Source of the DNA: an uncultured bacterium
Lineage (GTDB): Bacteria; Vulcanimicrobiota; Xenobia; Xenobiales; Xenobiaceae
Assembly: GCA_934636825.1 (NCBI GenBank)
Contig: CAKUBG010000005.1
Span: forward strand, 47,491 to 111,490
Reading direction: 5' to 3'
DNA: 64,000 nucleotides
Every line of letters begins with the position of its first letter. Within the stretch, counting starts at the first letter, position 1. The translations under genes and the position numbers were made by a program. The notes below the pieces were generated by a model that worked only from the letters and a program-made list of their open reading frames with translations, searched no databases and was not told the DNA's origin. This document shows, piece after piece, positions 7,784 through 49,644 of this stretch.

Positions 7784-9379
7784 TTAATTGCCAGCTTCCA
7801 AATTAACATCTTTGCTGTAAGAGTAGATGTGACTCTTTTCAGTAAAGTCGCTATCCCAGTTCCAGTGAGTAGTAAACAAGAACTGGACAGGATAAGAAGT
7901 TTCGGAAGCTTGACCTGTAAGAGCTATCAAGCCAAAAGGATCGACAATCTTCTCTAAGAGATCAACATCAGACTTGTTGACGATCTTTTTGCTCTTAGCA
8001 TCGTAACGGCAGAAGCTAAGGGTGCCTTGCAAGTCATCAACGTTGTATTTGGTGCTAGTTCCGGTAGTCAAATAGGCAATATCTAAATAACGTTTGTCGT
8101 TCTGATCCAAAGGATTGGTAAAGGTAACGTTAACTGGGTATTGCAACTGATCGAGGATAAGGGTGTATTTGCCGTCGTTGTTTTGCAAGTTTTGCAAACT
8201 GTCGATATATTTACTGTCAAATTTGTAAATCCAGAGAGCGCCCTTGTTGTCGGCGGAGCTGGCTTTACCGTATTTGTCTAAAGCGAAACCGCTGGCAATG
8301 GTAAGGTATTGGTTGCTCTCTCCATCATTGTCAGTTACACCGGAAGTCCAGGCAAAATCATAAGGATTTTGCAAGTCAATATTTTTATCTTCAGGTTGAA
8401 TATAGTTTACGTATTTTTTAGCAGTGGCAGCCAACGGGTATTTGCTATCGCCTCTAAAAGCTGTCAAGCTGTTATTATTGGCGAAGAAGTAGATTTTGTT
8501 GTCTCCCTGACAAGTTACGGTTACCCAGGGGCCTTCATTGGCTTTTATTACAGCTGGGTAATTTAAGGTTAATCCGGCAAATACGTTACCGCAATTGGCA
8601 AGGTTACCGCTCAGATCTGCCAGTTTACCGTTATCGAAGATCTTTTCGTCAAAAGCGACAAATTTAACTGATCCTGTCTCTGCATAATCTGTATAGAACA
8701 GAGTGTTGATGGCATCGTCTCCACGATTGAAACTGCTGCTGCCAAATGAACAGGTCAGAGGACAAGTCGCTGTTAAATTGGTTCCACAATCAAATACGTT
8801 GACGGCTCTAGCTTCTTTCCAACCTTCTTTGCGAGCGCCCAGATCCATCAAATAGACGGCTTTGGTAGTGCCTAAATCGGTGACAGCTAAATAGAGATGA
8901 TCGTCAGTCTTATCATCTGCAGTGCCCATATTATCAATAATACCGGTAATATAGTAGGGGTTAGCCAAGTCACCTTTGGTATAACCGTTGCCGTTGCGAA
9001 TTTTGATAGTTACTTCTTGGGGATCGGCCTCTTTGTCGGTAGTGCTATACTTCAAAAGCCTATATTTGCACTGCTGATCGCTCATGCCGGCGCCACCGAC
9101 GGTGAAACCTTGGACAGTGTAAACGTTGTTGCTATCGTCTACATACTGATAAACAGGGTTACGAAGATCGCCTGTATTGACGACGTCGTAGGCTTTATCG
9201 TCAGGATCGTCCGGAGTAGGAGGAACCGGAGTAGAGGTTCCTGTGGGAGTGGAGCGAGTACCGGTAGGGAAGGGATCCAGCACGCCCATACCGCTGCCTG
9301 TGCCTCCGCAACCGATTACTGAGAGAGATACCGCTGATAGAACTGAAAAGATGGCAATGCCTAATCCGTGCCTCACCAT
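7784..9379 (-). CDS. hypothetical lipoprotein with a P/T-rich linker (531 aa)
   Basis: Signal peptide with lipobox (SLSVIGCGG), then a PTGTSTPVPPTPDDPDD linker and a large domain with no recognised catalytic motif. Confidence 0.5.
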   Translation of the reverse strand: MVRHGLGIAIFSVLSAVSLSVIGCGGTGSGMGVLDPFPTGTRSTPTGTSTPVPPTPDDPDDKAYDVVNTGDLRNPVYQYVDDSNNVYTVQGFTVGGAGMSDQQCKYRLLKYSTTDKEADPQEVTIKIRNGNGYTKGDLANPYYITGIIDNMGTADDKTDDHLYLAVTDLGTTKAVYLMDLGARKEGWKEARAVNVFDCGTNLTATCPLTCSFGSSSFNRGDDAINTLFYTDYAETGSVKFVAFDEKIFDNGKLADLSGNLANCGNVFAGLTLNYPAVIKANEGPWVTVTCQGDNKIYFFANNNSLTAFRGDSKYPLAATAKKYVNYIQPEDKNIDLQNPYDFAWTSGVTDNDGESNQYLTIASGFALDKYGKASSADNKGALWIYKFDSKYIDSLQNLQNNDGKYTLILDQLQYPVNVTFTNPLDQNDKRYLDIAYLTTGTSTKYNVDDLQGTLSFCRYDAKSKKIVNKSDVDLLEKIVDPFGLIALTGQASETSYPVQFLFTTHWNWDSDFTEKSHIYSYSKDVNLEAGN

Positions 9380-9681: not shown

Positions 9682-11754
9682 CTACTTCTCAGCAGCAGCC
9701 TTAGCTTCGGCAATTACTTGCTCGGCTACCATGGGCGGGGTCTCTTCGTAGTGGTCAAATTCCATAATGAAGGAGCCACGACCCTGGGTGATACTGCGTA
9801 AGTCGATAGCGTAGCGCTGCATTTCAGCCAAAGGAACCTGGGCTTTAATGCACTGCAAGCCGTTACCGATAGGATCCATACCACTGATACGACCGCGTTT
9901 GGAGTTGAGGTCGCCGATTACATCGCCCATATAGGAGTCGGGAACGGTAACTTCGACATTGACGATAGGCTCTAAGATGACGGGCTTAGCCTTGGGGGCG
10001 CCGTTCTTGAAAGCTTGCATACCGGCAATTTGGAAGGCCATATCGGAAGAGTCTACTTCGTGCATCTTACCGTCGTAAAGGCGAACTTTTACGTCTACTA
10101 CAGGGTTGCCGGCCAAAATACCGCTTTCCATAGCTTTACGTACGCCTTTTTCTACAGCGGGGATGTAGTTCTTGGAAACTACGCCGCCGACGATATTGTC
10201 TTCGAAGACGAAACCGCTGCCGGAAGGAAGACCGCTGATTTCAATAGCGACTTGACCAAACTGACCGCGACCACCGGCTTGCTTCTTGTGACGGTATTCT
10301 TCGGAAACCTTACCTTTAAGGGTCTCGCGATAAGGAATCTTGCGGGCGTAAAGTTCTACGTCCACACCCATTCTCTTGAGGCGCTCTACGCAAAGATCGA
10401 GTTGCACATCGCCGATACCGGTGAGAATGCTCTGGTGAGTCTCTTCTACGCGCTCGAGTTCGAGGGTAGGATCTTCTTGGAGCAAGCGCTGCAAGTTGGC
10501 GGAAAGCTTATCTTCGTCAGCTTTGGACTTGGCTCTAATAGCTCTGGAGAAGAAAGGACGAGGCAAATCTAATCCAGGAAGAGTGACTTTGCGGGAAGCG
10601 TCGCAAAGAGTGTCGCCGGTAGCGGAAGCGCCCAAACGACCTACGGCTACGATGTCACCGGCGGGAGCTTCGGAGATCTTCTCTTGGCTCTTACCACGAA
10701 TGGAGAGCAAGTTGCCGATCTTTTCGTCGATACCGCGAGCTAAGTTGTGCAAGGTGGTATCGGGACGTAAAGTACCGGCGAAGACGCGCATATAGGAAAT
10801 CTTTCCTACGTAGGGGTCGGAACTGGTTTTGAAGATGAGAGCTACGGCGGGAGCCTTAGAATCGGCAGCAATTTCTACATCATTGCCATCAGCATCTTTA
10901 GCCACAGAAACGGCGGTAGGGGCGGGAGCGTAATTGACAACGGCGTCGGCCAATAAGCTGATGCCTTTGAGAGTTACGGAAGAACCGCACAGGGCGGGAA
11001 CTACGGAACCGTTAGCAATTAAGATCTTGAGACCGGCTTTAATCTCTTCAGTAGAGAGCTCCATGGCCTCAAAGAATTTTTCGGTGAGTTCATCAGTAGC
11101 TTCGGCGGCAGCTTCTACGAGCTGTTCGCGGTGCTCTTCTACTTCGTCAGCCATGTCGGCGGGAATTTCAATTTCGGTGGCTACACCCTTAGCGTCGAAA
11201 GAGTAGGCTTTCTGATCGATCAAGTCTACTACGCCGCTGAAACTCTCGGCAGCGCCGATAGGAAGCTGGATAGGTACTACGCGAGCGCCTTTGAGCTTCT
11301 CTTTGGCTTCATCCATTAAGTGATGGAAGTTGGCATTCTCTTTGTCCATCTTGTTGACGAACATGATGCGAGCTTTAGAGCGAGCTTCGCAAGAATCCCA
11401 AATCTTTTCCATACCTACTTCGGTGCCGGAGTTGGCAGCAGCTACCAAAATAGCGCAGTCGACAACTCTGAGGGCGCCGAGGCTCTCGGACACGAAGTCG
11501 AAGAATCCTGGGGTGTCGATAATGTTTACTTTATTTTCTTTCCACTCGATAGGAACTACGGCGGAAAATACACTCATAGCGCGTTTGATTTCGTCGGGAT
11601 CGAAGTCGGCGACGGTGTTGCCGTTTTCGACTTTTCCGAGTCTGTCAATGACGCCAGAGCAATAAAGCAAAGCTTCGGCTAAAGAAGTTTTGCCGGCTCC
11701 CTGGTGGCCGAACAATCCAATATTGCGAATCTTTTCTGTGGAATAAATGTTCAC
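9682..11754 (-). CDS. elongation factor G family GTPase (divergent EF-G paralog)
   Basis: 690 aa with five-domain EF-G architecture, but a non-canonical G1 P-loop (GHQGAGKTS instead of AHIDAGKTT). DTPG and NKMD motifs are present. GTG start with GGAGGGA RBS. Confidence 0.82.
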   Translation of the reverse strand: MNIYSTEKIRNIGLFGHQGAGKTSLAEALLYCSGVIDRLGKVENGNTVADFDPDEIKRAMSVFSAVVPIEWKENKVNIIDTPGFFDFVSESLGALRVVDCAILVAAANSGTEVGMEKIWDSCEARSKARIMFVNKMDKENANFHHLMDEAKEKLKGARVVPIQLPIGAAESFSGVVDLIDQKAYSFDAKGVATEIEIPADMADEVEEHREQLVEAAAEATDELTEKFFEAMELSTEEIKAGLKILIANGSVVPALCGSSVTLKGISLLADAVVNYAPAPTAVSVAKDADGNDVEIAADSKAPAVALIFKTSSDPYVGKISYMRVFAGTLRPDTTLHNLARGIDEKIGNLLSIRGKSQEKISEAPAGDIVAVGRLGASATGDTLCDASRKVTLPGLDLPRPFFSRAIRAKSKADEDKLSANLQRLLQEDPTLELERVEETHQSILTGIGDVQLDLCVERLKRMGVDVELYARKIPYRETLKGKVSEEYRHKKQAGGRGQFGQVAIEISGLPSGSGFVFEDNIVGGVVSKNYIPAVEKGVRKAMESGILAGNPVVDVKVRLYDGKMHEVDSSDMAFQIAGMQAFKNGAPKAKPVILEPIVNVEVTVPDSYMGDVIGDLNSKRGRISGMDPIGNGLQCIKAQVPLAEMQRYAIDLRSITQGRGSFIMEFDHYEETPPMVAEQVIAEAKAAAEK

Positions 11755-12836: not shown

Positions 12837-14714
12837 ATGAAATGTCTGCCTGTTGAAGAATCAAATTGGCGTTGTTTAAAATCTGCTTGTCAAATTGCTG
12901 CTGTTGCCTTTATGGCAAGTTTTATTCTTTATCTTGTAACTTTGGCTCCGGCTATTCCGCCCGGCTTTGATAGTGCAGAATTGATTGGCGCTTGTGCTGC
13001 TGGCGGCATTGCCCATCCTCCCGGCTATCCGCTTTATACTATGCTGGGTTGGTTGCTTTGCTCGTTGGGGTTGGCCGCCCCGGCTCTAACGATGAATGTC
13101 TTTTCGGCTTTGTGCTCAGCTGCTGCTTGTGCTTGTTTAGCTTTCGGCTTATTTTTGACGCTTAATTCCGCTTGGGGAGCTTTGGTTGGCGCTTTCTGTT
13201 TCGCTTTTGCTTTGAGCCCTTGGCGCATGGCAGTTGGAGCTGAAGTCTTTGCTTTGCACTTATTCTTTCTCAGCTTATTGGCGGCTTTGGCGGTAGTTTA
13301 TAAAAAAATGTCTGCTTGGCGCCCTTATATGCTGTGGATTTTGAGTTTCATTCTGGGGCTTTCTTTTTGCCATCACCATACAACGGCGCTTTTTCTTCCG
13401 GGACTGGCTATATTTCTATATCTGAGCAACCAAAGCTATGATTCGTCTTCTGAAAGCAAAGCCTCAAAGCCGAAAGCCAAGCAAGGTGCCATGTTTAGCC
13501 GCTGCGCTGTTATAAGCGTTGCTTGCTTGTGCTTCGTATTGGGATTGCTCCCTTATCTTTGGCTTATAGGTAGGGCACGCTTTTTAACTGCCCAGGCCGA
13601 GCCCTTTGTGGCCTTTAATTGGGGCAATCCCTCAAGTTGGACAAATTTTTGCTGGGTTGTGACGCGCAGCGGCTACGGCAGTTTGCAACTGAGCACCAAA
13701 GGTGACGGCGCTTCCGGGGCGGCTTCACTGGCTTATTGGCTATGGTCATTGGTTTTTAAGCAATTCAAGCTTTTTGCCGCAGCACTGGGGCTGTGGGGAA
13801 TAGCCGTGGCTTGGAAGAAGCAACGGGAATTTTTTTGGCTTTTTGGTTGTCTTTTAGCTTTGGCAGGGCCTATCTGGGCTTTATATGCAGCCCAACCGGA
13901 TAGCGAAGGCTATCAAGAAATGATGGAGCGCTTTTTCTGCTCTTCATATTTGGCCTTTGGAGCCTTTATCGGCTGTGGGGCTGCAAGTTTAACCAATTTG
14001 GCGACACTTAAACAAGAAGCAAAAATAAAGAAGTGCTTGATTTACATTGCTTTGGTGGCTGCTTTGCTTTGGCCTCTGTCGTCTAATTGGAATGGAGCTT
14101 CCGAGCATGGGCAATATTTAGTTAATGATACTCTGCTCTATATGGCTACTTCTATACCTGATAAAGCTGTGGTGGTTGCTCAAAATGATGCTGTTTGTGG
14201 CGGTTTAATTTATGCCAAAGCTGTATTAAAGCGCGATTTTGTATTTATTCCGGTGGGAGTTTGCCATTCGCCCTGGTTTGTAGATTCGTTGCCATTTGCT
14301 TATGCTCAAACTTTAAAAACGCAAGGGCTGGCGGCTATGTTGGATCTGGCTTGGCGTGAAGGACGTGCCGTTTATTTTGACGACGAGCAAACAGCCGGAC
14401 AGTGCGGATTGGAATATGTGCCTTCGCATTATATTGTGCGCCAAGGATTGTTGTTTCGCTATGTAGGCAACGAAGAAAAAATATATGCTTCGGAAACAAA
14501 CCTTCGGCAATATCGCCTCCGGGCGCAGCGTGAGTTGGAAGAAGCGGTTAAGCAATATCATGCCGATTCTTACACAAAAAAGGCACGTCCATTTTGGCAT
14601 AAATTTATGCTCAACAAATGGGAACGTGCCCGCGAAGCTTTGGATGAAAACGCCGAATTAAGCAAAATCGAACAATTTTGCCTACATGCTGAAGAGGCAG
14701 CTAATGAGAATTAG
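12837..14714 (+). CDS. polytopic membrane protein, DUF2723/TMEM260-like putative GT-C glycosyl(mannosyl)transferase, with a C-terminal soluble helical domain
   Basis: About 11 predicted TM helices. The first extracytoplasmic loop carries FDSAELIGACAAGGIAHPPGYPLY (acidic D-x-x-E followed by HPPGYP), which I recognise as the DUF2723/TMEM260 signature. C-terminal ~200 aa are soluble. Confidence 0.55.
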   Translation: MKCLPVEESNWRCLKSACQIAAVAFMASFILYLVTLAPAIPPGFDSAELIGACAAGGIAHPPGYPLYTMLGWLLCSLGLAAPALTMNVFSALCSAAACACLAFGLFLTLNSAWGALVGAFCFAFALSPWRMAVGAEVFALHLFFLSLLAALAVVYKKMSAWRPYMLWILSFILGLSFCHHHTTALFLPGLAIFLYLSNQSYDSSSESKASKPKAKQGAMFSRCAVISVACLCFVLGLLPYLWLIGRARFLTAQAEPFVAFNWGNPSSWTNFCWVVTRSGYGSLQLSTKGDGASGAASLAYWLWSLVFKQFKLFAAALGLWGIAVAWKKQREFFWLFGCLLALAGPIWALYAAQPDSEGYQEMMERFFCSSYLAFGAFIGCGAASLTNLATLKQEAKIKKCLIYIALVAALLWPLSSNWNGASEHGQYLVNDTLLYMATSIPDKAVVVAQNDAVCGGLIYAKAVLKRDFVFIPVGVCHSPWFVDSLPFAYAQTLKTQGLAAMLDLAWREGRAVYFDDEQTAGQCGLEYVPSHYIVRQGLLFRYVGNEEKIYASETNLRQYRLRAQRELEEAVKQYHADSYTKKARPFWHKFMLNKWERAREALDENAELSKIEQFCLHAEEAANEN

Positions 14715-15537
14715 TTAGGCGACGGCGAGCTTGCTCTAAAGATTCGGCGTCATCGATATTATAAGCCGTTTCCGCATAAGGGCTGACCACACCGCAACAA
14801 GGCAACTTCAACAATCTGGCGGCGGCTTCTTCGGCCATAGGAATAGTCAATTTACCTATGAGCAAATAAAACAATGTTTTTAAGCCTAAAATTCTGGCCA
14901 GTTTGAAAGGGTTTTTACGTCCGGCAGTTACTGCTGCCATAGCTTGTTTTATGGCTTCGGCAATATCGGCTCTTAGACAAGTTAAGCCGCCGCCACAGAA
15001 AGTGCCTTCTACCATTTTTACCCAAGTATGGCGTACTTCAGGATATTTTGCTTGAGAAACGGCTTTGTCCAAAAAACCATACCACAAAACATTATGTGGC
15101 TTAGTACTGCATCTATCCAGAAAATCGTCAACGGCTTCTGTAGTTAAAAAAGGTAGATCGCCGGCAACCAACAGTACGGGATCGTGGCTTGAAGGCAAAG
15201 CTTGGAGTCCTGAAAACAAAGATTGTATCAGACTGGAACCAGCCGGAGCCACCTCGTCGACACCTTCCCACTCTGGCCCCAAATCTTCTTTTTTTACTGG
15301 GCTTACTAGGATAATGCGGCGGATACGCTGTGATTGGCGCAAAGCTGCCAAAGTGTAGGCGCTCATGGGTTTATTCCCCAGCATAATATGGCCTTTGCCG
15401 GGTACTTCCGGCTCTGAAGCGGGCAGATCTTTTAGTCGGCCACCTGCCAAAAGAACCGCATCGATAGGTATATCAAATTTGTCTTCGGGGTTTGCTAAAT
15501 TCTTGGGCATTGTTGAATCACTCATTCTTGCACACAT
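14701..15537 (-). CDS. MobA-like nucleotidyltransferase (NTP_transferase_3 family)
   Basis: DAVLLAGGRL...G is the N-terminal GT-A nucleotide-binding signature. Its ATG lies 1 nt after the ispE stop (translational coupling), and its 3' end overlaps the convergent 12837 gene by 14 nt. Confidence 0.6.
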   Translation of the reverse strand: MCARMSDSTMPKNLANPEDKFDIPIDAVLLAGGRLKDLPASEPEVPGKGHIMLGNKPMSAYTLAALRQSQRIRRIILVSPVKKEDLGPEWEGVDEVAPAGSSLIQSLFSGLQALPSSHDPVLLVAGDLPFLTTEAVDDFLDRCSTKPHNVLWYGFLDKAVSQAKYPEVRHTWVKMVEGTFCGGGLTCLRADIAEAIKQAMAAVTAGRKNPFKLARILGLKTLFYLLIGKLTIPMAEEAAARLLKLPCCGVVSPYAETAYNIDDAESLEQARRRLTNSH

Positions 15538-15538
15538 C

Positions 15539-16474
15539 CTAAGCGAAGCGGGTTAAATAGACTCGCCCCAATTTTTCTAAGCTATGTAGCAATTCTGGCT
15601 GAGCTTGGACTTGCTGGTAAATTTTGGGGTTGAGCATAGCAAATATCGTAGAGCCGCTACCGCAAAGTTGGGCTGCTTGGCATCCCCAGGCGAGCAAAGC
15701 TTCTCTTATGGAGGTCAGTTCAGGTTGCATACTTTGAGCGGCTGGGTAGAGATCATTTTTCAATTCGTTGAGAAATAGAACTTGCCATAGGCTGGCATCT
15801 TGGGCATGAGGTGCAGGTTGATTCTCTAAAAGCTTGACTAAATTGGCGGAACATCCCTTAGCCGGGTGGCGTTTTCCTTCAGGCAATTGATCCCAGGCTT
15901 TGTAAACTTCCGGTGTGCTTAGTCCAAAAGGCGGAATGAGCAAAAGAACTCCCCAATCTTTAAAGAGCTCGGGAGTCGGCAACTTGCTCAGTTGCTCGCC
16001 CTTACCTAAACCGCGGGCTGTATTTTCCACCAAACCAAAGGCTACATCTGCTCCCAATTTAGCTGCTTCCGATAATAATACTTCATGGGATAGTTTCAAA
16101 TCATAGAGTTCATTTAAGCCCTTTAAAGCGGCTGCGCAATCGGCACTGCCGCCTCCAAGGCCGCCGCCGGCCGGTATATTTTTATGTAATTCAAAGTGAC
16201 AGGGCAATTCTTGTCCAGTAAGTTTTTGCAAAGCATTATGGGCTTTTAGTACCAAATTGTTTTGATCGGCACTTACTTCAAAACCGCAACCTATTTCGTC
16301 AACTATTTCTAAATCAGTCTTTGGGGCTTTACTTAATAAAAGTTTATCGGCTAACTCTAAACTTTGAAAAATTGTATCTAACTGATGATAGCCATTAGGC
16401 AAAGTATCCAACAATTCTAAAGTCAAATTTATTTTGGCTAGGGCCTGATAACTTAAAACATTTTGATTTTCCAT
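15539..16474 (-). CDS. ispE: 4-diphosphocytidyl-2-C-methyl-D-erythritol kinase
   Basis: GHMP-kinase motif NIPAGGGLGGGSADCAAAL, with the N-terminal KINLTLE typical of IspE. Confidence 0.9.
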   Translation of the reverse strand: MENQNVLSYQALAKINLTLELLDTLPNGYHQLDTIFQSLELADKLLLSKAPKTDLEIVDEIGCGFEVSADQNNLVLKAHNALQKLTGQELPCHFELHKNIPAGGGLGGGSADCAAALKGLNELYDLKLSHEVLLSEAAKLGADVAFGLVENTARGLGKGEQLSKLPTPELFKDWGVLLLIPPFGLSTPEVYKAWDQLPEGKRHPAKGCSANLVKLLENQPAPHAQDASLWQVLFLNELKNDLYPAAQSMQPELTSIREALLAWGCQAAQLCGSGSTIFAMLNPKIYQQVQAQPELLHSLEKLGRVYLTRFA

Positions 16475-19245: not shown

Positions 19246-21336
19246 CTATTTTTGAGCTTTCGTTTTAAAGTGGCGCGTGTCATATATTTTTAATAGGTAT
19301 AATTTTGGGGTAACTTCTCCGGGAATTAGGTCTTTTTCGTAAGAATATTCCTCTATAATCTTTACCGGCGGTCCAAAAATAACTTCTAGCCTTTGACAAA
19401 TATCTTTAAAGACAGCTTGTCCCTGATCCGGGGCTACTGTATAAGCTCCACTGCGGGGGCGGTGACTACACAGCCGCTCACTTACAGCAATTAAATTGTA
19501 ACCTTCATGTTGTATAGCTTCCAAATCGTTGCGACTAAAATGACGGGGTATGTATTGACTGCCCAAGTCACTTATAAAGCCCAGAAAGCTTTGGTCTACC
19601 AAAGCTTGTTTGTCAAAGAGCCAAACGTCTTTACCGCTATTGTAAAGATGGCGCGAAAACAAACCTCTGTTGCGATCTATAACTAAGCGCAAATCCACCA
19701 AAGTAAGATCTGGGTCATAGTAAAAATTATGGTTATAATCGCTGGTCGCTTGCCAAGGTCGTCGCCCTAGAGGAACAAAGATCGCGCTTTCTGATAAATG
19801 TTGTTGTGACTGGGCGTAATTGCTTATGGCTGGAGCGAGCTTGGTAGAGGGCCAAGGCAATTGCTTGCGTTGTATGGCTTCGCCAAAAGGCAAAATAATA
19901 GCGGCAACCGTTATTATAGCTAACAATTGAGGAGAAAATTTTTTGTTATCTCGCAGTGCTTCCAGGCTCATGGCTACACAAATCGCTGCGGCAATGGCAA
20001 ATAATAATATAGTTTGGCATGGCCAGAACAACTTGTTTAGGAGCGGCATATGGTCGCAAAAAAATTTGTAAGGCAAGGGAATAGGGTGGCCTTGCCAGCA
20101 AACCAATTGGGCTTTGTGCTTGAGAAACGGCCCTAAGGGCAGCCAATAAAAGGCTGCGGCGGCCCAACACCAAAACTTCAGCCGACTCTTGTTTTTAAGC
20201 TCGGCTTGCGTGCAAAGCAACAAAAAAGCCAGCACGACCATTAGGCTGATATTGGCTGAAAATGTCGCTTCTGTGGGAACGCTTTGCGGAGGATTGATAG
20301 GAGTGCTTAAGCCTTTGGTCGGCTGAACGAAAGCGTAAAAAGCTTCACACGAATAGGCAATGCTCTGTCTGTAAAGCGTTGACACGTCGGGAACGCGCCC
20401 AGGATCGGGACGAACCAATCCGGGAATATTGTCGTGAGAAAATAGACGCGTCAAGTAAGGATGAGCAGCTGGCAAAATTATTACACTGAAGCTTAAAACA
20501 AACAGAAGCAAGCTGCTCCAAGTTTCAATATTAAATTTCAGCTTAAATGAAGGAAGCTTTTTCTCCCTTCCCCAACAAAGGGCCGCCGCTGTGGCATGAT
20601 AGAGCGCAAAGAACAACACAAAAATTACGGCAAAATGGCCATAAAACCAATAATTGCAGGCTGTCAGAGCTAGGAGGGTTCCGCAACGGGCCCATTTCCC
20701 CGGATCATTTTGTCCCCAAGCTAAAAGAAAACTGCCAATAAAAAAGACTGGCCAAAAAGTTTGCGCTTCGATAATGCGTCCTGTGCTTAACAAGAACCAT
20801 TGCCAAGGGTTAAAGGCAAAAAGGAGCCCTCCTAAAAAAGCTGAGCTGGGACGACAGCCCATTTTGCCGCAGAGCCAACGCGCAGCCAGAGCATCGGCCA
20901 CTACGATAAGGATACACTTTACGTTGTAATAGAGGGGAAAGCCAAACAATTTGGCTAGAGGCCAAGTCCAGACAAAATCCAGACCGTTAGCTACACTGCT
21001 GCGTTCTCCAAAACTGACTAAATGATTATATAGTTCCGGAAGTCTGGCTAGAGATCCGGTTAGGCCGTAATTAGTGATAAAAAAGTGGAAAGTTTGATAA
21101 TAATATTGCTCCCAGGAATGATAGATCCAGAGCGTTTGTGCTGTATTTTCGTGACCCAAATAGCCTATAACAGCTTGTTTAGCTTGCCAAATAAATGAAC
21201 CGGCGCACAAGATAGACAGCAAAACATAAAAAATCGCCGAGAAGCGAAAGTCGCAAAATGAATCCGCGTGGGCAAAAAAATCTTTTACGGCAAATGTGCT
21301 GTGGGCTGAAGTTTGGCTTTTATTTTCGTCTGGCAT
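19246..21336 (-). CDS. large polytopic membrane protein (696 aa), GT-C-like architecture, paralogous to the 22567 gene
   Basis: At least 12 TM helices. It has a W-rich first loop (TLWIYHSWEQYYYQ) and a ~200 aa C-terminal soluble domain. Family not identified. Confidence 0.5.
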   Translation of the reverse strand: MPDENKSQTSAHSTFAVKDFFAHADSFCDFRFSAIFYVLLSILCAGSFIWQAKQAVIGYLGHENTAQTLWIYHSWEQYYYQTFHFFITNYGLTGSLARLPELYNHLVSFGERSSVANGLDFVWTWPLAKLFGFPLYYNVKCILIVVADALAARWLCGKMGCRPSSAFLGGLLFAFNPWQWFLLSTGRIIEAQTFWPVFFIGSFLLAWGQNDPGKWARCGTLLALTACNYWFYGHFAVIFVLFFALYHATAAALCWGREKKLPSFKLKFNIETWSSLLLFVLSFSVIILPAAHPYLTRLFSHDNIPGLVRPDPGRVPDVSTLYRQSIAYSCEAFYAFVQPTKGLSTPINPPQSVPTEATFSANISLMVVLAFLLLCTQAELKNKSRLKFWCWAAAAFYWLPLGPFLKHKAQLVCWQGHPIPLPYKFFCDHMPLLNKLFWPCQTILLFAIAAAICVAMSLEALRDNKKFSPQLLAIITVAAIILPFGEAIQRKQLPWPSTKLAPAISNYAQSQQHLSESAIFVPLGRRPWQATSDYNHNFYYDPDLTLVDLRLVIDRNRGLFSRHLYNSGKDVWLFDKQALVDQSFLGFISDLGSQYIPRHFSRNDLEAIQHEGYNLIAVSERLCSHRPRSGAYTVAPDQGQAVFKDICQRLEVIFGPPVKIIEEYSYEKDLIPGEVTPKLYLLKIYDTRHFKTKAQK

Positions 21337-21371
21337 GATTTCACAATTGGCAAAGTGTTGGCAAAATAAGG

Positions 21372-22451
21372 CTATCTAACTTCAGGAGGTGGCGGCCCTT
21401 CTCGTTCAATGGGAGGAATGGCGGGGTTTAATTCCTTACGCAGAGCAGCCTCTGATTCCGATAAAGCAAGAGATTCTTTTATTAGGTGCAAAGTTTTAGG
21501 GTAGAGTAAATCCTGTACAAACCGTTTATCTAGTGCTTTTATTTCTGGCTCTCGAAGCAAAACTTCCCATTGCTTTTCTGGGATTAACTTGACGGCTTCG
21601 TCATGTAAAATGCTTAAACGCAATGACGATATTCTGAGTCTTTCCAGTATAATTAAGCATTCTTGAGCTTGTTGAGACTGAAGTTTTGGGTGGGCAATTT
21701 GGCAAAGGTTCTGCAGAGAAATAAGTATTCTCAGAGGATGAAGTTCCAATTGAGAGGCTTTTTTTAGCAACCGGTGACGCTCTGGCGAAAGTGCAAAACC
21801 TGGGGCGGAGGACAGTGGCAAAGGCGCTGTATTTAAGGGAGGTAAACTGAGATTGCGATATAGTCTCAATGTTTTCTCTTCAGCGGCTATATCTTTTCGA
21901 TCGCCTCGGAGCACTTCTGCAAGTGAATCCAGATCTTGCAAGCGACCATAAGCGGCCCAGTGGGCATTTTTCTTCAAAACAGAAATTGCTTTAGTATAAG
22001 TTCTTATATCCGAACCTTCGGAGCCTCCACAAGAGTAAGGAGTCAATGAATCATCTAGACTGAGAAAAACTCGCAGTTGTTCGGTAGAGAGGCGCTCATA
22101 TAACTGAGAATATAGGTTTAGACTATTATCGACTTCTTGTTCGGCCAAGTTTTCCAATAAAGCAAAATGTTGACTGTCGGCGACCGATAGCGGCCAGAGA
22201 CCTTTTTTTTGTAATAGCTTTTGACAGCGCTTAAGTCCGAGCCAGTCTAGGCAAACTTGGCTATTTTCTACATTTCTTAGCGGATTAAAACCGCTACCTT
22301 TGGTAAAAACATAGCCTTCGCGACGCATTTCATATCCGTCTACACTTTCGCGACAGCTGCAAGTGAGTAAAGCCAACTCCACTACAAGTACAAAAGTTAA
22401 ACTGACAATAGCTATAAAAACGTATTTTTTTGAAGTTTGGCTCGCCGTCAT
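21372..22451 (-). CDS. N-terminally anchored hypothetical protein (359 aa)
   Basis: Single N-terminal TM (FIAIVSLTFVLVVELALL) followed by a Leu-rich helical domain. No known motif. Confidence 0.45.
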   Translation of the reverse strand: MTASQTSKKYVFIAIVSLTFVLVVELALLTCSCRESVDGYEMRREGYVFTKGSGFNPLRNVENSQVCLDWLGLKRCQKLLQKKGLWPLSVADSQHFALLENLAEQEVDNSLNLYSQLYERLSTEQLRVFLSLDDSLTPYSCGGSEGSDIRTYTKAISVLKKNAHWAAYGRLQDLDSLAEVLRGDRKDIAAEEKTLRLYRNLSLPPLNTAPLPLSSAPGFALSPERHRLLKKASQLELHPLRILISLQNLCQIAHPKLQSQQAQECLIILERLRISSLRLSILHDEAVKLIPEKQWEVLLREPEIKALDKRFVQDLLYPKTLHLIKESLALSESEAALRKELNPAIPPIEREGPPPPEVR

Positions 22452-22566
22452 ATGAGTGCAAAGCCCTTCGTATAGGGGAAAAGGAAAACCTGCTTTAGAA
22501 ATAGCAGCCTTCTTTATGGTGGTTTAATACTGATTTGAAGCCTATTTTTTGAGCGCAGGTTAATTC

Positions 22567-24546
22567 ATGAATATTATGCAAAGCGAGTCGCCGACTAATG
22601 ATAATAAGCATATGGAGCAAATCGAAAGCCTAACCGGAAAAGCGGTTGGCCATTTCCCCGTACAAATTGAATTTATTTTCGTCGGCCTTTTTTTGGCTTT
22701 GCTTACAATTGCCGCTCTTTGGCCTGCACCAATCCATTTAGAGGAAAATTTAATAGGCGATTATCAAGGTGATTTTTGGAAGCATTTATGGGGCCACTGG
22801 TGGGTACGTGATAGTCTGGCTAAGGGACAAATACCTTTATTCTGCGATTTACTCAATGCTCCACGAGGCGGTTATTTGTTTATTGCCGATCCTTGCAATG
22901 CTATTTTCAGTTATGTCTTTTCCAACTTTGTCGGTTTAGCTGGAGCCTACAATTTAACGATAATTTTTAATTTATGGCTCGGTTTGCTGGCAGCTTGGTT
23001 ACTGGCTCGTTATTTTGTCAAGGACGGAGCTTGCGCTTTGGTGGCAGCTGTTATTTACGGTCTTTCCGCTTATGTGCTTAGTTATCCGGTCTCTTCCGGA
23101 GTAACCGAAACGTTAAATACCGCTTGGGCGCCGTTGTATATTCTTTTTTTACATCGCCTTTTGAAAAATGGTCGAATAGGAGATTTGCTTGGCGCTGCCT
23201 TATTTTTTGCGCTTACCACTTTTTCGTGTTGGTATTATGGCGAATTTATGGCGGTGTATACCAGCTTGGCTTTGGGGTGGTCTTTATTTGAGCTTTTGCG
23301 CACCTTTTGGAAAGGGCGGACTTTCTCTATATCCTCTTTAGTACGTTCGTCTAGAATGAGAAAATCTTGGCGATGTTGTTTACTTGCAAGCTGGAACGAG
23401 TGCGCATGGATATGGAAAAAGCAAATTATAAAAACTGCGGCGGCAATTGTTATAGGGGCGATTATTATTTCTCCTTTTGCTTGGCTTTTCAAGATGACCG
23501 TTTCTAATTCGGCTAATATTGTTATGCCGCGCAAAGCTCCCAAACGTTCCATATTTAACTTCAAAGATTATTTGGGCCAAGCTCCAGAAAAGAGCGTAAA
23601 TCAACATGGCGTACGTGGTTTTCACAATTATACAAATTTGTTGGGCTTAATTTTGCCGGGCAAGGGTAATGCCACAGTTACGTCTACGGTAGACAGGTTA
23701 GTCAGAGTCCATTATTTGGGATGGATAGCTTTACTGTTGGCTTTTGCAGCTTGGCGTCGCCAAACTTGGCGACGAGAATTTTTGTATTGGATAATTGTAT
23801 TCGGATTTTTTATCGCCCTTTCTTTAGGGCCGCGAGTTGTTTTTTCTGATTTTTCTGAGGCAGGCTTTGTCAATCCGTTTTACCTTTTGATGTTTCTCGG
23901 CTTTCCATTCTTTTATAATTTGGCCATTCCGTTTCGCTTTTTGATGTTGGCTCTTATAGGCTTGTCGATAGTGGCTGCTTACGGAAGTAAAGCACTTTGG
24001 GCTGAAGAAGCGCCTGCTCGCAAGTGGTTTTTTTGTTTATTGGCTTCGCTAATGATCTTTGTAGAAACTATTTTCGTATCTCCTTTACCTTGGCCGTTGC
24101 CGATGAGTCCGGCTCAAACTCCGGCTTATTATCAAATGCTAGCTGAGGATCCGCGCTCTTATGCCATAATAGACTATCCTTTCGAGAGGCCCGGAACTAT
24201 TTTGGTACCTGGCGAATATTTCTATTACCAAACTGTACATCGCAAGCGCATACCTTATCGAACCAGTGGAGTTTTGAGCCCGGAGGTAGTGCATAATGCT
24301 TTCATGGAAGAAGTCTTGTTAGCTCAGAGAGGCATTAAACCTTCTTCACAAAGTGAAAGACGATTGCGTGAAGGAGCCAAAGCTCTGTTTGATATGGGGT
24401 TTTATGCTTTTATTTTGCATGAAAATTTGCTGGCCGAATTTTCTGCTCAAGATATAGAAAGTCGTTTGACGCCGATTTTGGGAAAGCCGATGCGCTTCGG
24501 CGACGGTTTGATTGTCTATAATTTGGATTCGCTAAATGATAAATAA
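22567..24546 (+). CDS. large polytopic membrane protein (659 aa), GT-C-like architecture, paralogous to the 19246 gene
   Basis: Similar topology to the 19246 protein and the same style of first-loop motif (GDFWKHLWGHWWVRD). It is transcribed divergently from the 22451 gene. Confidence 0.5.
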   Translation: MNIMQSESPTNDNKHMEQIESLTGKAVGHFPVQIEFIFVGLFLALLTIAALWPAPIHLEENLIGDYQGDFWKHLWGHWWVRDSLAKGQIPLFCDLLNAPRGGYLFIADPCNAIFSYVFSNFVGLAGAYNLTIIFNLWLGLLAAWLLARYFVKDGACALVAAVIYGLSAYVLSYPVSSGVTETLNTAWAPLYILFLHRLLKNGRIGDLLGAALFFALTTFSCWYYGEFMAVYTSLALGWSLFELLRTFWKGRTFSISSLVRSSRMRKSWRCCLLASWNECAWIWKKQIIKTAAAIVIGAIIISPFAWLFKMTVSNSANIVMPRKAPKRSIFNFKDYLGQAPEKSVNQHGVRGFHNYTNLLGLILPGKGNATVTSTVDRLVRVHYLGWIALLLAFAAWRRQTWRREFLYWIIVFGFFIALSLGPRVVFSDFSEAGFVNPFYLLMFLGFPFFYNLAIPFRFLMLALIGLSIVAAYGSKALWAEEAPARKWFFCLLASLMIFVETIFVSPLPWPLPMSPAQTPAYYQMLAEDPRSYAIIDYPFERPGTILVPGEYFYYQTVHRKRIPYRTSGVLSPEVVHNAFMEEVLLAQRGIKPSSQSERRLREGAKALFDMGFYAFILHENLLAEFSAQDIESRLTPILGKPMRFGDGLIVYNLDSLNDK

Positions 24547-25642
24547 GCTAATCGTAAAATATCGAGAATCTGCTAGCCCTTTGCTATTACGCGAATTAAG
24601 GCTTGTTTTAGCTCAAAGCAAGCTTTGCTTTTGGGAAGCTATTTTACCTATCTTTTGGTCGCTTTATCTTGTTTGGAGTTTTTGCTTGGCTTGGGAAGGC
24701 AGCTACCAGCCTGTAATCTCTTGCTCACATATGCTATGTTGGTTGACTGCTGCTTTTATCTTAGGTCAATATCTCGGATTAGCTCCGCGTTTAGCTGCTT
24801 CAATTTGCTCAGATCGCCGCTTGGGCATATACAAAATGCTTAGCGTTACCCCAAGAGGTTGTTGCCGAAGTTTGTCCTTAAAATTGTTGGCTTTTTCAGC
24901 TCCATATCTAATTGAATGGTGCTTATTATCTTTAAGCGGTGCCATTTTCTGTATGTTTACCCCTGAACTTAACGCGGAAATTGTGCTAGCCTCTTCTATA
25001 TACAGTTTGTTGTCTTTGCTAGTAGCCACCTTTGGGGGCACTTGGTGGGGTATCTCTTTTCAAAATACTTCAGATAAGTGTACCGCTTCGTTGCGCAAAT
25101 TGTTAATTACGGCAGCTGTGGGAGCTTTTTGTTTGCACAATTTTTGGCATTTTAGTCAAATGGAAACAGTCTTAGTATTATGTAGCTTGTTAATCATCCT
25201 TTGGAGTGGATCGATACGCATATTTTGGAGTGACTTTTCTATAACTTTAGCTTTATTATTGATAGGATTGTCCTTTGTACCTTCTATAGGTCACTCAGAC
25301 TGGCCGTTGGAAGATTGTTTTAATCCAGTTCGTGTAAGTTTGGCTGGCATGTATGCTCTCGATAGAGAGGCTTTGCATAGTGATAATTTGGCTTCGGATG
25401 GTGCCTATTCTATTTTGCGCGAACATTTAGTCGGCAGCCAAGAATCTCCATATTTGAGTCAGTTGCTCCATCTCTATAACGAAGCTTCTCAAGTGAGTCA
25501 AGAACAAATTTATGCTCAAGTGCGCAGTGAAGCTGAAATCTATTTATTAAGAAGTTGTGGGGCCAATCTTGTTGCATCTGTTGTTTGCGCTCTCGGCGCT
25601 TGTTTGATGCTGCTGCGCTTACGCTCAAGCTTTGAAGTATAA
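24536..25642 (+). CDS. polytopic membrane protein (368 aa), hypothetical
   Basis: 8-10 predicted TM helices. Its start overlaps the preceding gene by 11 nt, suggesting an operon. Confidence 0.45.
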   Translation: MINKLIVKYRESASPLLLRELRLVLAQSKLCFWEAILPIFWSLYLVWSFCLAWEGSYQPVISCSHMLCWLTAAFILGQYLGLAPRLAASICSDRRLGIYKMLSVTPRGCCRSLSLKLLAFSAPYLIEWCLLSLSGAIFCMFTPELNAEIVLASSIYSLLSLLVATFGGTWWGISFQNTSDKCTASLRKLLITAAVGAFCLHNFWHFSQMETVLVLCSLLIILWSGSIRIFWSDFSITLALLLIGLSFVPSIGHSDWPLEDCFNPVRVSLAGMYALDREALHSDNLASDGAYSILREHLVGSQESPYLSQLLHLYNEASQVSQEQIYAQVRSEAEIYLLRSCGANLVASVVCALGACLMLLRLRSSFEV

Positions 25643-46361: not shown

Positions 46362-46509
46362 GCTGTCTAGGCATTGTCGATATGGGGGGAAAATTGCAGG
46401 GGCTCTTCCGTTACTTTTATGAGTATCGGTGGGCTCTTGTGCTTTTTTATGGTTCTGTTGGGAAGTTCGTTCTTTAGCAAATTGATTATTTTTTTTAGAG
46501 GTGAACTTT

Positions 46510-49500: not shown

Positions 49501-49644
49501 AAAGGTGCAGAATCTAAAGAAGAAGTCTCAACACAAAATAATTCGGCTGTAATAGTGCATGAAGCTTCTGCTATAGAATTGAGTTCCAAGCAAGATGGAG
49601 CCTTAGAAGAAGATTCTGTATCTGGTGCTAAGGCCGAACAATAA
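46510..49644 (+). CDS. fusion protein: sugar-1-phosphate (mannose-1-P-type) nucleotidyltransferase, left-handed beta-helix, phosphohexomutase (PGM/PMM) domains and a ~220 aa acidic C-terminal extension
   Basis: N-terminal MKAVIMAGGEGTRLRPLT (NTP_transferase) followed by hexapeptide repeats. The PGM/PMM metal loop reads GIIMDADAERIYLVDEEG, but the canonical phospho-Ser loop GGIMITASHNP is replaced by GGIHTRVYRDE. GAGGTG RBS upstream. Confidence 0.78.
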   Translation: MKAVIMAGGEGTRLRPLTVSRPKPMVPVCNRPVMEYTLDLLKRYGIDTVVVTLHYKAEDIISYFGDGTDFGLKIVYSIESSPMGTAGSVKQIQDTVGDDTFLVISGDGLTDIDLGRAVAFHKEKRSTATLVLMRVNNPLEYGVVITNENNAIERFLEKPSWGEVFSDQVNTGIYILEPEIFNLMEKGRSYDFSRDIFPKLLEQKKGLYGYVAGGYWCDIGDIDHYASAHRDMFDGKVLQEMVGTQRTPGVWIGEGTKIDPTAVLEAPLMIGRNCRIGAHTYISSYTCIGDNCIIEEDVNLQRDIIFNNVFIGSKSNCVGAIICRQCTIKSGVTLNDSSVIGENVFIGRGATVRNQISIWPDKNIPDGSTISENLVWGKKNSETLFGRDSITGLGNLEITPEFAMKLGAAFGTSLPKGSTVTVSRDSRPVSRLINRAIISGLSSVGVNILDLRLLPAAVSRYIVSVTKAVGGIHTRVYRDESRLVEIEFFDESGINIDKIRQRKVENSFVRQDFRRTDVDEVGIISYLDTSIDKYIEGFISHLDTKSIKEANFKVVIDYSYGTACQVLPFILNRLGVETVSINAYVDYDKAREAQEKKDEALRQLSNIVKPIGANLGIIMDADAERIYLVDEEGTAIKGTNLLALVALMVFRRNKDALVAVPISVPGIMEKLAQQQHGKIIRTKTDYRSIMHSAVVSEGRIALAGTSSGAFVFPKFSPGFDAMFLLAQMLEMMAFDKRKLSEIAKAIPPHYSLSGSVECNWSEKAKVMRLLVERYRDEKLELLDGVRIDFDDDSSILMVPHPSLARINVWTDASSKERAKALMERARFVIPQLASADENAVKMERQEDDQHKMISPTTNISEERAFHFWIPGRYLGVQVRSLRSFVDVLHYIETASLEYHMERNDFANWLRTELGRYLVALDLEQISKARYKGEELRRHILECFGEATSSSSATEQAEGDELEEAHLKIDDAPAVKTIGGIKFAPHYQSDDNEVADSTKGAESKEEVSTQNNSAVIVHEASAIELSSKQDGALEEDSVSGAKAEQ

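Follow-up and report, generated by a model that had tools for sequence, protein, structure and literature searches.

A complete gene for a member of the TMEM260 protein family was identified in the 64-kb window, the whole stretch of DNA that was analysed. The 625-aa product is probably an active inverting GT-C glycosyltransferase (CAZy GT117) of the cytoplasmic membrane, with a polyprenyl-phosphate donor and, most likely, Ser/Thr of proteins as acceptor. Its place in the family is well supported but holds no surprise; in Pfam and at NCBI such proteins already go by the label TMEM260-like. What is new is the clade to which it belongs: confined to gut Xenobia (Eremiobacterota), this clade lacks, judged by its alignments, the distal TPR ‘fingers’. 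The gene was recorded as follows.

12837..14714, + strand: complete TMEM260-like (PF11028 / CAZy GT117) GT-C glycosyltransferase gene, 625 aa, based on the ORF, Pfam, the human TMEM260 match, the family profile and dN/dS.

The source of the DNA was an uncultured human-gut Xenobia bacterium of the phylum Eremiobacterota/Vulcanimicrobiota. In the ORF listing of the window, the reading frame begins with ATG. Against five orthologues with 75-92% identity, dN/dS was 0.12-0.18, and both start codon and length were kept among the orthologues. By these comparisons the ORF is a real gene on which purifying selection acts. Its evolutionary rate was about twice that of the housekeeping neighbours (dN/dS comparison).

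The assignment to DUF2723/TMEM260-like proteins made in the preliminary description was borne out by the profile search suggested there, with a PF11028 match over residues 45-199 scoring 75.7 bits against a gathering cutoff of 24.2 (E=5.1e-21). Human TMEM260 (PDB 9RQL, 9rql_A) was matched by phmmer at E=4.9e-28, aligning query residues 24-460 to human residues 32-450. A profile built from 58 bacterial homologues covered residues 28-696 of the human protein (E=1.9e-148); this alignment spanned the Rossmann-like domain, and 139 residues of the 625-aa protein aligned to human 416-564. The protein is thus, on alignment evidence, a true relative of human TMEM260, with homology that extends beyond the N-terminal domain into the variable module and the Rossmann-like domain. 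Profiles for PMT (GT39), ArnT (GT83), ALG12 (GT22) and STT3/PglB/AglB (GT66) gave no significant score on it, and a PMT/PMT_2 profile match and a MIR domain were both missing. According to precomputed domain lists, the identical protein P0001 and all clade members carry PF11028 only, and PF28495 (TMEM260_2) occurs in most TPR-bearing homologues. The bacterial family is very large, with about 9,000 clusters at 50% identity. That its bacterial members are uncharacterised agreed with a literature search, which gave nothing on them beyond the human TMEM260 papers and no biochemical data, an absence of evidence and not a proof.

The structural comparison proposed earlier yielded a confident AF2 model (pLDDT 92.5, pTM 0.93) with a GT-C fold and eleven transmembrane helices. 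Nearest in structure were ALG12, Pmt4, ArnT, AglB/STT3 and PglB, at an identity of only 9-13%. From PMT/POMT (GT39), ArnT, ALG12 and STT3/PglB/AglB the protein differs in having no MIR domain and in carrying its putative base on a C-terminal Rossmann-like domain. The helix layout of the model matched the description of human TMEM260, with two short loop-1 helices, a split TM8 and R365 in TM10. The transmembrane core is followed by this feature:

14112..14492, + strand: alpha/beta domain of the Rossmann-like type on the extracytoplasmic side (approximately aa 426-552), a homologue of the Rl ‘palm’ in human TMEM260 (model and alignments).

Its modelled strands comprised residues 445-448, 469-472, 512-514, 532-536 and 539-543, with flanking helices.

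Human TMEM260 (CAZy GT117; PDB 9RQL/9RQM/9RQN) is a protein O-mannosyltransferase that acts on the IPT domains of plexins, cMET and RON. In a 2026 study (bioRxiv 10.64898/2026.03.17.711096), cryo-EM and mutagenesis identified the D...HPPGYP loop as a sugar-recognition motif that positions the donor, and D441 of the luminal Rossmann-like domain as the general base. The human D52A, H67, R264A, Y267A and D441A mutants were inactive, and D52, H67, R264, Y267, R355 and D441 were each required or nearly so (bioRxiv 10.64898/2026.03.17.711096). These six residues correspond to D45, H60, R277, Y280, R365 and D451 of the 625-aa protein, which were kept in 57-58 of 58 bacterial homologues and all retained across the clade of 36-100% identity. 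They are located in four features.

12969..13031, + strand: first extracytoplasmic loop with the sugar-recognition motif D45-S-A-E48 ... H60-P-P-G-Y-P65 (D45 = human D52, H60 = human H67).
13665..13676, + strand: donor-loading-loop residues R277 (human R264, phosphate contact; 58/58) and Y280 (human Y267, sugar contact; 57/58).
13929..13931, + strand: R365 in predicted TM helix 10 (human R355, sugar contact; 58/58; model helix 357-391).
14187..14189, + strand: D451, equivalent to human D441 by alignment mapping, the proposed general base, invariant (58/58).

The loop lies in FDSAELIGACAAGGIAHPPGYPLY, residues 44-67 of the protein (nt 12966-13037, ORF translation). H60, G63, Y64 and P65 were invariant in all 58 homologues aligned. 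The acidic D-x-x-E noted at the outset proved to be conserved as well, with D45 present in 57/57 and an acidic residue (E or D) at position 48 in 57/57. Conservation of the motif is, as far as the alignment tells, far beyond chance. The designation of HPPGYP as the putative catalytic loop held in so far as this is the essential sugar-recognition loop; the proposed general base lies elsewhere, at D451 of the Rossmann-like domain. Since the loop positions the donor and D441/D451 provides the base, the loop is essential but would not be the whole catalytic apparatus. The conservation of the human functional residues across a very large bacterial family supports the view that bacterial TMEM260-like proteins are active.

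By homology to human TMEM260, a single sugar would most likely be moved from polyprenyl phosphate to an extracytoplasmic acceptor, which is probably a protein. The eleven-helix core would bind a polyprenyl-phosphate-linked monosaccharide, presumably an undecaprenyl-phosphate hexose. R277 would grip the donor phosphate, and the sugar itself would be held on the external side of the membrane by D45, H60, Y280 and R365. From its place in the extracytoplasmic Rossmann-like domain, D451 would deprotonate the acceptor hydroxyl for attack on the anomeric carbon; this hydroxyl would most likely belong to a serine or threonine in a protein that is secreted or anchored in the membrane. Enzyme activity, a lipid-phosphate-sugar donor and the inverting mechanism are what we infer from this comparison. 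The sugar may be mannose, which is only one candidate.

The resemblance to human TMEM260 comprised a homologous GT-C core, variable module and Rossmann-like domain, the PF11028 match, six identical functional residues and the predicted helix layout. In contrast, overall identity was about 30% or less, the distal TPR (human 621-696) was missing and the human Rl-domain acceptor contacts R439, G440, P443, E466 and I523 were not conserved by alignment mapping. The human enzyme resides in the ER and uses a dolichyl carrier, whereas the bacterial protein in the cytoplasmic membrane would use a polyprenyl, presumably undecaprenyl, carrier. What takes the place of the distal TPR is a short segment:

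14493..14711, + strand: truncated C-terminal helical region, aa 553-625, a TPR remnant of three helices (model helices 553-573, 586-602 and 610-624).

Twelve residues of the 625-aa protein aligned to human 621-696, compared with 62-155 in TPR-bearing homologues, and the human acceptor-binding TPR residues N638, K641, N642, R652, N680 and H693 all fell into gaps (6/6). The TPR of human TMEM260 is necessary and sufficient for binding of the acceptor peptide (bioRxiv 10.64898/2026.03.17.711096). In the human enzyme IPT-domain peptides are recruited by distal TPR helices that the clade no longer has, so that the acceptor and its recognition must differ from the human case. The label of a TMEM260-type O-mannosyltransferase is not transferable wholesale to a protein in which the distal acceptor-binding TPR is missing. 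TPR-bearing bacterial DUF2723/TMEM260-like proteins (from Patescibacteria, Firestonebacteria, non-Xenobia Eremiobacterota and others) have the family and the invariant residues in common with the Xenobia clade. They comprise 650-760 aa with a full TPR and PF28495 listed, whereas the members of the Xenobia clade comprise 571-629 aa and are TPR-truncated. The Xenobia genes are fixed in a housekeeping syntenic block, and among the TPR-bearing ones some belong to type IV pilus clusters or have IPT/TIG proteins as neighbours.

Across the family, 7 of 61 dereplicated lineages had type IV pilin genes as immediate upstream neighbours in the same orientation. The linkage was found in 11/70 clusters, in a CPR-like TPR-bearing subgroup, with P of about 0.007-0.02 when set against local surroundings that are themselves rich in pilins. 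This layout is also that of Pseudomonas aeruginosa TfpW, a pilin D-arabinofuranosyl transferase of about 646 aa with 11 TM helices and a periplasmic TPR, encoded directly downstream of pilA. Compared by published motifs, TfpW has a DDX motif in loop 1 and YX6PFX7P, whereas the 625-aa protein has F-D-S-A-E in loop 1 and HPPGYP, and its gene is not pilin-linked. Pilin linkage was not applicable to the Xenobia clade; the window contained no pilin-like ORF. IPT/TIG-repeat proteins adjoined the homologue in three deeply diverged TPR-bearing lineages, with 5 repeats in L011, 9 Pfam-scored repeats in L056 and 1 in L010; the significance of this adjacency hinges on the assumed background rate. The L011 repeats (GPTVGGFPITI, APTAGGTVITI and similar) matched GPLGGGIRIT, the site in human PLXNB2, in register. 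As a family-wide rule this linkage was rejected, being present in 3 of about 70 lineages only and missing from relatives that share 43-46% identity with the enzymes of L011 and L056. Altogether, the TPR of most members, the upstream pilins and the IPT/TIG adjacency suggest protein acceptors, a statistically modest signal that concerns the TPR-bearing members and not the Xenobia clade.

A candidate for donor synthesis was found in L094, L095 and L015, divergent TPR-less members of the clade, in which a 316-aa GT2 adjoins the TMEM260-like gene. It matched streptococcal PgfS (E=1.4e-77) and ArnC (E=1.8e-55) over the full length and had a C-terminal hydrophobic segment. A partner of the PgfS/ArnC type is no pointer to mannose. 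In the GtrB/PgfS and GT-C systems of streptococci (PgfS-PgfM1, GtrB-PgtC2), the GT2 loads one sugar on undecaprenyl phosphate and, after flipping, the GT-C enzyme transfers it to Ser/Thr outside, PgfS and its GT-C enzyme O-glycosylating Ser/Thr-rich protein regions (PMC12041528). The PgfS-like GT2 abutting the gene in these three loci resembles this logic. However, the streptococcal GT-C enzymes belong to the YfhO family and not to PF11028 (PMC12041528), and the window of the 625-aa protein holds no GT2 partner; a tblastn search of the 64 kb for a homologue of the L094 GT2 gave E=0.38 at best. Searches of the window revealed neither a GT2 polyprenyl-phosphate-sugar synthase nor a flippase, a pilin or a protein with IPT/TIG domains, so that for this genome it supports neither a route of donor synthesis nor an acceptor.

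With donor and chemistry unchanged, a non-protein acceptor, namely an envelope glycan or lipid such as lipopolysaccharide, a secondary wall polymer or a glycolipid, is possible although rather unlikely. ArnT, AftB/Emb and YfhO/CsbB-type systems decorate cell-envelope glycans or lipids. The GT2 beside the L094 gene also resembles ArnC, and other family members had YfhO-type GT-C proteins (12), GT1/GT4, GT2, GDP-mannose dehydratase and Polysacc_synt_2 as neighbours. The missing peptide-binding distal TPR and the lack of conservation at the peptide-contacting Rl positions are consistent with such an acceptor, but D441/D451, the base carried by the Rl domain, does not vary and the sole characterised family member is a protein O-glycosyltransferase. 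Most members bear TPR repeats, typically a means of recognising peptides, and elsewhere in the family the neighbouring pilin and IPT/TIG genes speak for proteins. Moreover, no envelope-polysaccharide genes adjoined the TMEM260-like gene in any Xenobia locus examined. Ser/Thr of a protein is thus preferred as the acceptor.

Functional orthology with human TMEM260 is quite improbable; it would mean that the conserved Ser/Thr in the IPT/TIG domains of bacterial surface proteins receives mannose from polyprenyl-phosphate-mannose. The TPR segment responsible for binding the IPT A-strand is missing from the clade, and no IPT-domain substrate was in evidence for the 625-aa protein: a regex scan for the IPT sequon (G-P-x-x-G-G-x-x-x-T/S type) gave no match in any window ORF, no TIG domain was matched among the window proteins scanned, and the Xenobia loci showed neither. 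The IPT/TIG proteins beside the homologue in L011, L056 and L010, including the L011 repeats in register with the PLXNB2 site, would fit orthology, but the linkage was lost in the relatives with 43-46% identity. Likewise, all mannose- and phosphate-contacting human residues are conserved and the window encodes a fused GMPPB-like nucleotidyltransferase/phosphohexomutase, but the sole clade-linked GT2 is PgfS/ArnC-like and not Ppm1/DPM1-like. A catalytically dead relic or purely structural membrane protein, to which the lost TPR segment and a dN/dS above that of neighbouring genes might point, is most improbable given a dN/dS well below 1, a confident and compact model and the retention of all known functional residues in a clade of 36-100% identity.

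For the family as a whole, a wider scenario may be put forward, though as doubtful. Bacterial GT117 proteins would be extracytoplasmic protein O-glycosyltransferases with clients including type IV pilins and IPT/TIG-repeat surface proteins, and the metazoan TMEM260-IPT pair would be of bacterial descent. The gut Xenobia clade would have shed the TPR ‘fingers’ and been retargeted, with a PgfS-like undecaprenyl-phosphate-sugar synthase, to other envelope proteins of a human-gut symbiont.

In humans, TMEM260 is linked to a disease, SHDRA syndrome; how the enzyme works was established only in 2023-2026. No expectation was overturned by the present findings. Bacterial members could serve as small models for work on structure and mechanism, and a naturally TPR-truncated enzyme could allow catalysis to be studied apart from the recruitment of acceptors by the TPR. 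In Xenobia, a lineage of the human gut that is still uncultured, the gene points to an unstudied envelope glycosylation activity, and at the family level CPR bacteria may have pilin-modifying enzymes of a new class.

Downstream, the TMEM260-like gene faces two genes on the opposite strand.

14701..15537, − strand: MobA-like/IspD-like nucleotidyltransferase, convergent, 3′ end overlapping by 14 nt (context; ORF listing and profile matches).
15539..16474, − strand: ispE (CDP-ME kinase), in an operon with the nucleotidyltransferase (NCBIfam TIGR00154, 162 bits vs a cutoff of 138.7).

The 14-nt overlap with the convergent nucleotidyltransferase/ispE genes reported in the preliminary description was exact in the ORF coordinates (14701-14714). 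A functional link to this operon was rejected as unsupported: the overlap is not conserved, and the block is syntenic throughout Xenobia with unrelated housekeeping genes (EF-G-like GTPase, RidA). The two genes were separated by a gap of 6 nt in L006 and of 38 nt in L096, and in L094 the GT2 gene was inserted between them. The overlap is therefore incidental, whereas the convergent arrangement with the nucleotidyltransferase was kept throughout the Xenobia-type clade.

The TMEM260-like gene and its convergent neighbours were found where the preliminary description had placed them, including the first extracytoplasmic loop, FDSAELIGACAAGGIAHPPGYPLY (residues 44-67 in the ORF translation), and the 14-nt overlap:

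12837..14714, + strand, TMEM260-like gene, 625 aa
14701..15537, - strand, MobA/IspD-like nucleotidyltransferase, overlapping the 3' end of the TMEM260-like gene by 14 nt
15539..16474, - strand, ispE (TIGR00154, 162 bits), following the nucleotidyltransferase gene

The ORF 12837..14714 is a genuine gene. In human-gut MAGs, five orthologues showed 75-92% identity to the window protein and were co-linear from residue 1. Their dN/dS of 0.12-0.18 (Nei-Gojobori) indicated purifying selection, about twofold more relaxed than in the neighbouring genes (0.007 to 0.09). The representative genomes with orthologues were MAGs from the human gut, among them UBP9_UBA4705 and Hadza samples. The nearest named homologues, with 56-61% identity, belonged to MAGs of Candidatus Bruticola, class Xenobia, phylum Vulcanimicrobiota/Eremiobacterota.

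The proposed DUF2723 membership was borne out by a match to PF11028 (TMEM260-like, formerly DUF2723) over residues 45-199, with 75.7 bits against a cutoff of 24.2 (E=5e-21). Among all PDB chains, human TMEM260 (9rql_A) was the sole phmmer match (E=4.9e-28, query residues 24-460). A profile of 58 bacterial homologues matched human residues 28-696 (E=1.9e-148), spanning the GT-C core, variable module, Rossmann-like domain and TPR. TMEM260 belongs to CAZy family GT117 (PMC11292533). The window protein is a bacterial GT117/TMEM260-like GT-C glycosyltransferase and was correctly identified. The family is very large: searched exhaustively with phmmer, 1.84 billion representatives yielded 9,070 clusters at E<=1e-3, of which 2,967 reached E<=1e-10. 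Because proteins of this kind already carry the name TMEM260-like, or protein O-mannosyl-transferase family, in Pfam and NCBI, the window protein adds a member to a known family. Its one distinctive feature is the lineage-specific loss of the distal TPR.

Functional residues of human TMEM260 were taken from a 2026 study that used cryo-EM and mutagenesis (bioRxiv 10.64898/2026.03.17.711096). There, D52 and H67 belong to a sugar-recognition motif between TM1 and TM2. In the donor-loading loop, R264 contacts the phosphate and Y267 the sugar. [quoted passage not shown] D52A, R264A, Y267A, D441A and H67 variants were inactive and R355A kept about 20% activity. Human residues 28-696 were rebuilt from the profile alignment and added to the bacterial alignment; the rebuilt numbering matched 26 of 27 residues named in TMEM260 papers.

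Human TMEM260 residues, window protein equivalents and conservation in the alignment of 58 bacterial homologues
D52, D45, 57/57
H67, H60, 58/58
R264, R277, 58/58
Y267, Y280, 57/58
R355, R365, 58/58
D441, D451, 58/58

The preliminary description had pointed to a conserved acidic D-x-x-E followed by HPPGYP as the putative catalytic loop. Its acidic residues were indeed conserved, with E48 (human E55) being E or D in 57/57 sequences next to the invariant D45. As D45 and H60 correspond to D52 and H67, the loop is the donor sugar-recognition motif. Although essential, it does not include the predicted base, which follows about 400 residues later. An AlphaFold2 model built with the alignment of the 58 bacterial homologues (pLDDT 92.5, pTM 0.93) predicted a helix layout in agreement with the description of human TMEM260. 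It comprised TM1 (residues 8-34), two short loop-1 helices (46-55, 65-76), helix 8 in two pieces (294-309, 311-328), a long TM10 carrying R365 (357-391), TM11 (396-416), a five-stranded alpha/beta domain (445-543) and only three C-terminal helices (553-624).

Acceptor-peptide binding by human TMEM260 requires the TPR 'fingers', which also suffice for it on their own, and mutation of the Asn ladder cuts activity to about 10% (bioRxiv 10.64898/2026.03.17.711096). The window protein aligned with 139 residues to the human Rossmann-like domain, with 49 to residues 565-620 and with only 12 to residues 621-696. The acceptor-contacting N638, K641, N642, R652, N680 and H693 were all opposite gaps, and the peptide-contacting Rossmann-like residues R439, G440, P443, E466 and I523 were not conserved. 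All 21 closest homologues were likewise short (571-629 aa, 2-27 residues aligned to human 621-696). This segment comprised 62-155 residues in the human protein and in 36 of 37 more remote bacterial homologues. These 36 carried recognisable TPR motifs and mostly also a second family model, PF28495/TMEM260_2. Judged from these alignments, the donor side of the window enzyme is conserved and the acceptor side is not. A protein may well be the acceptor; the main rival is a non-protein envelope component.

The donor was approached through a 316-aa GT2 gene in L094 and L095, the most divergent loci of the TPR-less clade (36% identity), where 15 nt separate it from the 3' end of the family gene. A related copy occurred in a third locus, L015:

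L094:9731-10681, - strand, PgfS/ArnC-like GT2
L095:7265-8215, - strand, PgfS/ArnC-like GT2
L015:13742-14689, - strand, 90%-identical GT2 copy, about 2 kb downstream of the family gene

The L094-type protein matched the NCBIfam models PgfS (E=1.4e-77) and ArnC (E=1.8e-55) over its full length, both below the equivalog cutoffs, and bore a C-terminal hydrophobic segment. The three GT2 proteins are predicted undecaprenyl-phosphate-sugar synthases. Enzymes of the PgfS/GtrB type put one sugar on undecaprenyl phosphate for a GT-C partner, which then works outside the membrane and O-glycosylates proteins in Ser/Thr-rich regions (PMC12041528). The GT2 neighbour supports a polyprenyl-phosphate monosaccharide as probable donor in the TPR-less clade. 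ArnC plays the equivalent role for ArnT. The PgfS/ArnC-like GT2 gives no pointer to sugar identity and does not favour mannose. Within the 64-kb window, no homologue of it was found (best tblastn E=0.38). One further gene of the window concerned sugar activation:

46501-49644, + strand, 1,047-aa fusion protein joining a GMPPB-like sugar-1-phosphate nucleotidyltransferase to a phosphohexomutase and DUF5752

The nucleotidyltransferase carried a left-handed beta-helix, the phosphoglucomutase/phosphomannomutase part comprised three domains and DUF5752 was C-terminal. The fusion is an unusual single-chain path from hexose-6-phosphate to NDP-hexose and shows only the capacity for NDP-hexose production.

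In the best-supported mechanism, the window enzyme would bind a polyprenyl-phosphate monosaccharide, with R277 holding the phosphate and D45, H60, Y280 and R365 the sugar. D451 would then activate the acceptor hydroxyl, and inverting transfer of the sugar would follow on the outer side of the cytoplasmic membrane. The protein is very probably an active lipid-phosphate-sugar transferase; mannose as the transferred sugar is a rather doubtful assignment.

The gene surroundings were of housekeeping character, with gap-pgk-tpi, an EF-G-like GTPase, RidA, ispE, thrS, proS, flagellar rod genes and a sigma factor. The 64-kb window contained no pilins or IPT/TIG proteins and no cluster for glycan biosynthesis. 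The order lipoprotein, EF-G-like, small ORF, RidA, TMEM260-like, followed by the convergent NTP-transferase, IspE and DUF3857, was retained in all members of the clade, including those with 36% identity. The 14-nt overlap was not retained (L006 has a gap of 6 nt, L096 one of 38 nt, and in L094 the GT2 gene is inserted), and the overlap and the proximity to ispE were therefore considered incidental. The nucleotidyltransferase at 14701-15537 (-) showed weak IspD likeness (TIGR00453, 31 bits against a cutoff of 181), had NTP_transf_3 as best Pfam match and shares an operon with ispE, a pairing conserved across Xenobia. Its product may be either a divergent IspD or some unrelated enzyme.

The lipoprotein of this syntenic block (7784-9379, - strand, 531 aa, predicted) had a VIGC lipobox followed by the Thr/Pro-rich linker TGTRSTPTGTSTPVPPTPDDPDD, matched no Pfam or NCBIfam family and was fast-evolving (67-95% identity). 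Such linkers are typical O-glycosylation targets in other bacteria; nothing ties this one to the TMEM260-like enzyme. The EF-G-like GTPase (9682-11754, - strand, GTG start) showed 97-99.9% identity and dN/dS of 0.00-0.03 among the genomes compared, its neighbours 75-90% identity. Four consecutive large ORFs at 19246-25642 (696, 359, 659 and 368 aa) had no Pfam match; the first two were syntenic in Bruticola and other Xenobia loci.

Family-level associations with pilins and IPT/TIG proteins were a more promising lead than the window gene itself, and neither context is applicable to the Xenobia clade. In 84 non-Xenobia loci, the two nearest genes to the left and right of the family gene were scanned with Pfam. 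Recurrent neighbours were pilins with N-terminal methylation motif (12), YfhO-type GT-C proteins (12), GT2 (8), PilC/T2SSF (7), prepilin peptidase (6) and IPT/TIG proteins (3). After dereplication at 50% identity, a pilin-like ORF with a GFTLIEL-type signal was present within 4 kb in 11/70 lineages. In 7/61 it was the immediate upstream gene on the same strand, 40-284 nt away (P 0.007-0.02 against an already pilin-rich local background). The pilin-like gene with N_methyl motif was directly upstream in L026, L031, L038, L042, L043, L051 and L061; L029, L035/L037, L064 and L067 were also pilin-linked. PilC/T2SSF, prepilin peptidase and YfhO-type genes were often nearby. The pilin-linked enzymes were TPR-bearing, 22-48% mutually identical and closest to Patescibacteria/CPR sequences. 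Their gene layout resembles Pseudomonas pilA-tfpO and pilA-tfpW, suggesting by analogy a possible pilin-glycosylating role of this subgroup. By published motifs, TfpW has DDX, whereas TMEM260-like enzymes have D-S-x-E...HPPGYP.

Secreted IPT/TIG-repeat proteins adjoined the enzyme in three lineages whose enzymes were only 28-36% mutually identical:

L011:9183-10871, + strand, five repeats, directly downstream of the enzyme
L056:3-3257, + strand, nine Pfam-scored repeats, directly upstream of the enzyme
L010:10534-13056, - strand, one repeat, two genes from the enzyme

The L011 repeats (GPTVGGFPITI, SPAAGGVLITI, APTAGGTVITI, LPAAGGVHITV and GPISGGTVITI; G/A-P-x-x-G-G-x-x-I-T) were in register with GPLGGGIRIT, the TMEM260 acceptor site of human PLXNB2 (bioRxiv 10.64898/2026.03.17.711096). 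What they have in common is no more than the signature of IPT domains. The linkage was absent in L098 and L099, relatives with 43-46% identity to the L011 and L056 enzymes, and its P ranged from 1.5e-4 to 0.08 depending on the assumed background rate. It is an interesting, weak lead.

Two TMEM260-like paralogues lay close together in L012 (7001-9211 and 9627-11333), L017, L023 and L078, in direct tandem in L012 and L023. The arrangement hints at paired enzymes that differ in specificity, or at heteromers, for which Pmt1-Pmt2 is a precedent. In a single case, a GH92 family alpha-mannosidase gene (L013:9999-12284, - strand) was located two genes downstream of a TPR-bearing TMEM260-like gene.
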